DNA of 64,000 bases. It comes from Escherichia coli O127:H6 str. E2348/69. GTDB taxonomy: Bacteria; Pseudomonadota; Gammaproteobacteria; Enterobacterales; Enterobacteriaceae. The stretch lies in the NCBI RefSeq assembly GCF_000026545.1, contig NC_011601.1; one strand, 5' to 3'. Of this stretch, positions 29,466 to 29,591 are shown piece by piece. The stretch's first letter is position 1, and every line of letters begins with the position of its first letter. A program made the translations under genes and the position numbers. The notes under the pieces are model-generated. The model worked only from the letters and a program-made list of their open reading frames with translations, ran no database searches and was not told where the DNA came from.

Positions 29466-29591
29466 ATGAAACTTTTAATGCGCGCTATATTCAGTCTGTT
29501 GTTGCTTTTTACTCTCTCTATTCCTGTCATTTCTGACTGTGTTGCAATGGCCATTGAAAGTCGCTTCCAATATATGATGCTGCTTTTTTAA
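29466..29591 (+). CDS. yqfG: small hydrophobic protein YqfG (41 aa)
   Basis: ATG 2 bp after uacT stop; reads MKLLMRAIFSLLLLFTLSIPVISDCVAMAIESRFQYMMLLF; too short for the ORF track. Confidence 0.5.
   Translation: MKLLMRAIFSLLLLFTLSIPVISDCVAMAIESRFQYMMLLF

Follow-up and report, generated by a model that had tools for sequence, protein, structure and literature searches.

A short hydrophobic open reading frame (ORF) stands immediately behind the urate permease gene uacT in Escherichia coli O127:H6 str. E2348/69, and raises the question of whether it is a gene and, if so, what its product has to do with the permease. It was examined within a 64,000-nucleotide stretch of contig NC_011601.1 (the window; positions are counted from its first letter), and by comparison with related loci in other genomes.

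Results

Identity of the ORF and layout of the locus

The features of the locus are collected in Table 1. Direct translation of the ORF yields MKLLMRAIFSLLLLFTLSIPVISDCVAMAIESRFQYMMLLF followed by TAA, which is exactly the 41-codon hydrophobic peptide quoted in a first-pass annotation made from the sequence alone. That annotation had also proposed that the ORF matches the small protein YqfG; as the ORF is annotated yqfG ('protein YqfG') at these exact coordinates in the RefSeq record of E2348/69, and the exact peptide is on record under that name (144 contigs carry it as 'small predicted membrane protein / protein YqfG'), the identification was correct. Its absence from the program-made ORF list was a mere effect of the size cut-off. 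The product is identical to K-12 YqfG (UniProt YQFG_ECOLI) in 38 of 41 residues, the differences being K2N, L3F and Q35K (K2, L3 and Q35 in this allele; N2, F3 and K35 in K-12), and the family varies at all three positions. The placement between the urate permease and idi, on the uacT strand, is borne out by the ORF map and by the RefSeq tables of both E2348/69 and K-12 MG1655, which have the same uacT-yqfG-idi order. The feature is the E2348/69 allele of a known, annotated and partly characterised gene.

Table 1. Positions of the features discussed, within the 64,000-nucleotide window
Feature	Position	Strand	Basis or remark
uacT (ygfU), urate/H+ symporter	28016..29464	+	RefSeq annotation and ORF list
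UacT C-terminal tail	29420..29461		Basic, amphipathic
GGAG, putative Shine-Dalgarno sequence of yqfG, within the final uacT codons	29456..29459	+	Read from the sequence; function inferred from position
yqfG CDS, 41 codons plus TAA	29466..29591	+	Translation and RefSeq WP_001339298.1
yqfH	29596..29658, ORF extending to 29527	-	RefSeq pseudogene flag in E2348/69
Stable hairpin, 12 nt past the yqfG stop	29603..29637	+	Folding and paired changes
Constitutive promoter of idi (TTGTCG-18-AATCAT)	29628..29657		Corresponds to genomic SELEX promoter (PMC3946193)
49-aa hydrophobic ORF, ubiI-gcvT spacer	46470..46619	-	Antisense to an annotated 27-aa CDS

The gene was named yqfG in all 29 sampled E. coli genomes covering the region (RefSeq), and a 501-nt query around it matched 5393 of 5426 complete E. 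coli genomes, with 100% identity to E2348/69. The uacT-yqfG segment is entirely absent from a few complete genomes (33 of the 5426 gave no match to the query), so that some strains can dispense with the pair; in one genome (H30, NZ_CM184350.1) the match was restricted to the idi end of the query. Most database 'variants' of 37, 45 and 57-66 aa are due to a different choice of start codon, or to a frame that runs past its stop because of an indel in the terminal T-run.

The junction with uacT is tight. The permease gene ends in GGA GAA TAA, with its stop codon at 29462-29464, and a single base (T at 29465) separates this stop from the ATG at 29466, so that the first-pass statement that the ORF begins 2 bp after the stop holds as an offset of +2. 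The GGAG sequence is spaced 6 nt from the ATG. With the uacT stop codon 1 nt before the yqfG start, this stop-start arrangement suggests that the two genes are probably translationally coupled. The frame is open from an earlier ATG at 29448, from which a mechanical ORF call gives a product of 47 aa; this longer version was rejected, as the N-termini of homologues in the family alignment and the position of the GGAG both favour the start at 29466.

The peptide had a mean Kyte-Doolittle hydropathy of 1.44, as compared to a background of -0.14 +/- 0.56 for the ORFs of the window, and its highest 19-residue window scored 2.18. Among the 180 ATG-initiated ORFs of 30-60 aa found in six frames across the whole window, only one was more hydrophobic.

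Coding constraint on the yqfG frame

Loss of the reading frame in close relatives had been proposed in the first-pass annotation as an observation by which the ORF could be refuted. In a comparison of nine distinct Escherichia alleles (E. coli, E. albertii and cryptic Escherichia clades; 126 nt) the frame was kept: 28 variable sites were distributed over codon positions 1/2/3 as 5/3/20 (chi-square p = 1e-4), no indels were present, and the remaining two forward frames were interrupted by many stops. Values of dN/dS against this allele, calculated by the Nei-Gojobori method, were 0.10 for E. albertii, about 0.2 for the cryptic clades and 0.35 for Citrobacter sp. R56, all of them derived from few sites and the last with dS near saturation. 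In comparison, idi gave about 0.12 and uacT about 0.02, yqfG being under looser constraint than uacT. In addition, six-frame HMM matches were confined to the yqfG frame (E = 1e-18 to 1e-21). Few as the sites are, these comparisons agree in direction and show purifying selection acting on the frame as a protein.

The YqfG family and its predicted structure

A word-indexed search for YqfG returned Escherichia and Shigella sequences only. When loci fetched through UacT were searched by tblastn, diverged yqfG genes were found, among the matches listed, in Citrobacter sp. R56 (54% identity, 41 aa, with a 1-nt gap after uacT as in E. coli) and in Kluyvera genomosp. 1 (38 aa); E. fergusonii and Salmonella fell outside this sample of listed matches. 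A profile search against 1.84 billion representative proteins gave 28 matches, nearly all of 38-41 aa, with Citrobacter, Enterobacter cloacae and Klebsiella michiganensis/oxytoca/pasteurii as named sources. The family is thus found in Escherichia, Citrobacter, Klebsiella, Enterobacter and Kluyvera. Scans of the peptide against Pfam, NCBIfam and PADLOC returned nothing meaningful, and a profile search of the PDB gave no match.

In an alignment of 24 YqfG sequences, P20 and R33 were invariant and R6, L14, S32 and F34 nearly so; residues 25 and 29 were always small (a small-xxx-small pattern), and the C-terminus was usually aromatic, mostly Phe. Using this alignment, AlphaFold2 returned one continuous helix spanning residues 2-40, with a mean pLDDT of 85 and the lowest values across the final ten residues, and YqfG is accordingly predicted to be a single hydrophobic transmembrane (TM) helix. 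The first-pass description, 'signal-peptide-like or single-TM', fits both this model and the published account of YqfG as a small membrane protein resembling signal peptides (PMC4597795).

Linkage of yqfG to UacT-type permeases

The genomic surroundings of yqfG were compared in 12 contexts (Escherichia, two Citrobacter, Kluyvera, Klebsiella, Enterobacter, and five further loci from one genome assembly and four metagenome contigs). In all 12 the small gene lies directly 3' of a Xan_ur_permease gene on the same strand; the gene is thus co-operonic and invariably transporter-linked, as a KdpF- or CydX-like role would have it. The permeases in question are of 481-493 aa, and in 10 of the contexts the two genes either overlap by 1 nt (TAATG) or stand 1-4 nt apart, the wider gaps being those of Kluyvera (about 66 nt) and locus L097 (about 88 nt). 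In Kluyvera genomosp. 1 (L006, 4450-4515) the homologue lies some 66 nt past the permease stop, with a GC-rich inverted repeat (GGGCGCTGGGAGTCACATCCCAGCGCC) in between and an SD-like AGGAA of its own, an exception to the tight coupling in most other contexts.

The gene on the other side is less constant. It is idi in Escherichia and Citrobacter and an FdhF-like molybdoenzyme gene in the Klebsiella- and Enterobacter-type loci, while in L099 and L100 the genes that follow are on the opposite strand. The FdhF-like oxidoreductase gene after permease-yqfG (L089-L092, L095-L098, L100) is often split by gene callers into 139 aa plus about 560 aa, which suggests an in-frame TGA (selenocysteine) codon.

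Permeases of the Klebsiella- and Enterobacter-type loci are only ~42% identical to E. coli UacT and are still paired with yqfG; their best match in the window is UacT, the other NCS2 paralogue giving about 26%. A tail core, RTVRMWLL(M/L)RK, is common to UacT and these permeases. The basic, amphipathic C-terminal tail of UacT itself (VRTVRMWLLMRKLKKNEHGE) is also present in orthologues without YqfG, and the Morganella copy stops short of it.

A six-frame HMM search (E <= 10) found no YqfG gene, among the matches listed, beside the ~80%-identical UacT orthologues of C. freundii, Serratia oryzae and Pluralibacter, two of which have a terminator immediately behind the permease; some lineages can therefore do without the small protein. 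The same search, again among the matches listed, found none by the more distant permeases of Morganella, Hafnia, Edwardsiella, Aeromonas and Burkholderiales.

The 3' end of yqfG and other small ORFs

Folding of the 81-nt stretch 29580-29660 revealed the hairpin listed in Table 1 (MFE -27.1 kcal/mol, z = -5.8 against shuffles), whose stem is kept among Escherichia species by paired changes (TCGACA...TGTCGA here, TCGGCATC...GATGCCGA in others). It lies inside the yqfH frame. A U-tract is missing from both strands, so that the hairpin does not qualify as a canonical intrinsic terminator; it may stabilise the 3' end of the uacT-yqfG mRNA or mark a site of its processing. A scan for consensus promoters and terminators made no call at the yqfG 3' end, and Rfam, applied to 27500-30400, gave only one sub-threshold chance match, away from yqfG. 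The spacer between yqfG and idi holds the constitutive idi promoter identified by genomic SELEX (PMC3946193).

In K-12, yqfH encodes a 23-aa protein (VanOrsdel et al. 2018, PMC6001520) and is convergent with yqfG, overlapping its last 4 nt. In E2348/69 it reads on antisense to yqfG because a 1-nt deletion in the T-run just past the yqfG stop removes the yqfH stop codon. It is called as 17 aa in the cryptic Escherichia clades; its length is therefore poorly conserved. The highest hydropathy among the small ORFs of the window belonged to a different one, the 49-aa MLWVFDLVFFDIFLALNIVLFKLTFSLHHLFIEKGVFFGFLFCCDFCIF in the ubiI-gcvT spacer. The 27-aa CDS to which it is antisense fits K-12 yqfI in size and position, and the 49-aa ORF may only mirror this lysine-rich gene in AT-rich DNA.

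Discussion

YqfG has been studied in connection with the intramembrane protease RseP. Akiyama and co-workers, with reference to Hemm et al. 2008, presented it as a small protein of the membrane whose function is unknown, and for which TMHMM gave a type II (N-in/C-out) topology; it was picked as an RseP candidate for its likeness to signal peptides, and an HA-MBP-YqfG fusion (K-12 allele) was integral to the membrane and was cut by RseP inside the TM segment (PMC4597795). A later screen placed it among the class I substrates of RseP; the plasmid-borne, the chromosomal and the purified protease all cleaved it (PMC10470546). The TM residues mutated in the RseP work (I8-F15) are identical in the allele described here. 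The main text of a ribosome-profiling preprint (10.1101/511675) does not name yqfG. On the side of the permease, uacT is placed at the edge of an anaerobic, reductive urate-degradation cluster (bioRxiv 10.1101/2025.05.19.654654), and none of the papers found ties YqfG to UacT. What the present analysis adds to prior knowledge is solely the linkage of YqfG to UacT-like permeases in all contexts examined, which is absent from the literature found (Hemm 2008 and Papakostas & Frillingos 2012 lay outside the search).

Our preferred reading, to which we assign a probability of roughly 0.4, is that yqfG is a real, translated gene whose product is a co-translated accessory or modulator of UacT. The gene would be transcribed together with uacT, and YqfG would most likely be synthesised by ribosomes coming straight from the completion of UacT, because its Shine-Dalgarno sequence is contained in the last part of uacT and its ATG follows the stop after one base. 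It would thereby be present beside the permease, in proportion to UacT, as a 41-residue single helix of the inner membrane. The N-terminus, with R6, would be cytoplasmic, and the short conserved C-terminal tail (E-S-R-F-x-Y/F-x-x-L-F) would face the periplasm. YqfG may bind UacT, or a partner in urate uptake, by helix-helix packing through the small-xxx-small face, a kink at the conserved P20 and the ESRF-aromatic tail, and would act as a non-essential accessory tuning the stability, assembly or activity of the permease, in the manner known for other small membrane proteins and transporters; RseP would limit its level and clear the excess. The translational coupling, and any interaction of YqfG with UacT or effect upon it, are what we infer from sequence. 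Since urate uptake in E. coli Nissle rises when ygfU is over-expressed by itself (PMC9067508), YqfG would not be needed in stoichiometric amounts for transport. This and the loss of yqfG in several lineages speak against the role of a strict subunit. A broader and more tentative proposal is that YqfG peptides in general may be dedicated accessory subunits or regulators of UacT-type permeases, made by coupled translation, their removal by RseP indirectly tuning urate uptake.

YqfG could also be real and translated and yet be no partner of UacT, anchoring or serving instead the neighbouring anaerobic urate-degradation or formate-linked oxidoreductases (YgfT/YgfS, FdhF-like), or having an unrelated membrane role and no more than a transcript in common with the permease. 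Oxidoreductase operons often contain small single-TM proteins, which supports such a role, and in the Klebsiella- and Enterobacter-type loci yqfG does lie between the permease and the FdhF-like molybdoenzyme gene, adjoining ygfT/ygfS. We nevertheless regard this as less likely: Escherichia and Citrobacter, where idi comes next, retain yqfG without an FdhF-like gene, L099 and L100 continue with a gene of opposite orientation, L093, L094 and L099 have no ygfT-like gene called beside the permease, and the only invariant neighbour of yqfG is the permease. Less probable still is that the peptide itself is functionless and only its translation matters (for example by protecting the 3' end of uacT mRNA, blocking Rho or handing ribosomes on), or that the peptide is a tolerated by-product. 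The tight stop-start arrangement, the proximity of the next gene in Klebsiella-type loci (~17-45 nt past the yqfG stop), the loss of yqfG in several lineages and the degradation of YqfG by RseP like that of other small hydrophobic peptides (PMC10470546) are in line with this explanation, but several observations speak against it: P20, R33, S32, F34, the small residues 25 and 29 and the aromatic C-terminus are kept across genera whose permeases are 42% identical, the length is held at 38-41 aa, variation is biased to third positions with dN/dS well below 1, and L099 and L100 have no co-oriented gene directly behind yqfG to receive ribosomes.

The remaining two explanations take up the resemblance of YqfG to other short hydrophobic peptides. 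It could be a signal peptide with a short cargo, from which signal peptidase, cutting behind the hydrophobic core, would free a periplasmic peptide of 12-18 residues with an aromatic end, RseP clearing the remnant. R6, a hydrophobic core of 11-13 residues and P20 give a layout like that of n-, h- and c-regions, some homologues have A-x-A-like sites (VQA|G in Kluyvera, AMA|I in E. coli), and the same likeness had made YqfG an RseP candidate. The candidate -1/-3 positions vary, however (VQQ, VQY, N or E in several homologues), the AlphaFold2 helix is predicted to run unbroken across the putative cleavage region, and HA-MBP-YqfG accumulated at its expected full-length size without RseP (PMC4597795); we consider this reading improbable. 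Hardly credible is a type I toxin-like peptide under antisense control from the yqfH side. YqfG is short and hydrophobic like the Hok-family proteins, which are themselves RseP substrates (PMC10470546), and in K-12 the end of the gene is overlapped by yqfH; yet it occupies an operon position behind a permease and not a stand-alone toxin/antisense locus of the Hok/Ldr kind, as judged from the locus and from the PADLOC scan, which matched no defence or toxin model. Moreover, tagged YqfG was expressed in two studies of which neither mentions toxicity (PMC4597795, PMC10470546), and yqfH, a pseudogene in E2348/69, differs in length between relatives.

Should the accessory reading be right, NCS2/NAT nucleobase transporters would have in YqfG their first described small-protein partner, which would be genuine progress on a modest scale; to our knowledge no small subunit of these permeases is known. 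The linkage to urate permeases across genera provides a testable function for an orphan small protein. It may also be of practical use, as UacT (YgfU) is over-expressed in engineered uricolytic probiotics for hyperuricaemia (PMC9067508), where a natural partner that stabilises or tunes it would be valuable. As the result of a sequence scan, the ORF was one already annotated, and shows that known small proteins are hidden by a first-stage size cut-off.

Comparison with known small membrane proteins

The closest known counterpart of the present ORF is K-12 YqfG, with which it shares locus, length and annotation, and of which it is an allelic variant only. With the remnant signal peptides and small proteins cleaved by RseP (YkgR, HokB, HokE, Blr and YshB), YqfG shares a type II-like hydrophobic segment and tiny extramembrane parts. 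Unlike remnant signal peptides, it is encoded by a gene of its own, ends in a conserved motif and is not a by-product of secretion; it differs from the Hok proteins in that no toxicity has been reported for it. Among the known small partners of transporters and membrane complexes are KdpF (with KdpABC), CydX (with CydAB) and AcrZ (with AcrB), proteins of ~30-50 residues with a single TM helix; the genes of KdpF and CydX are in the same operon as those of their partners. YqfG has no sequence similarity to these three (no Pfam or NCBIfam match), and its partnership with UacT is put forward as a proposal; in its size, its predicted helix and its operon position behind a transporter it is like them.
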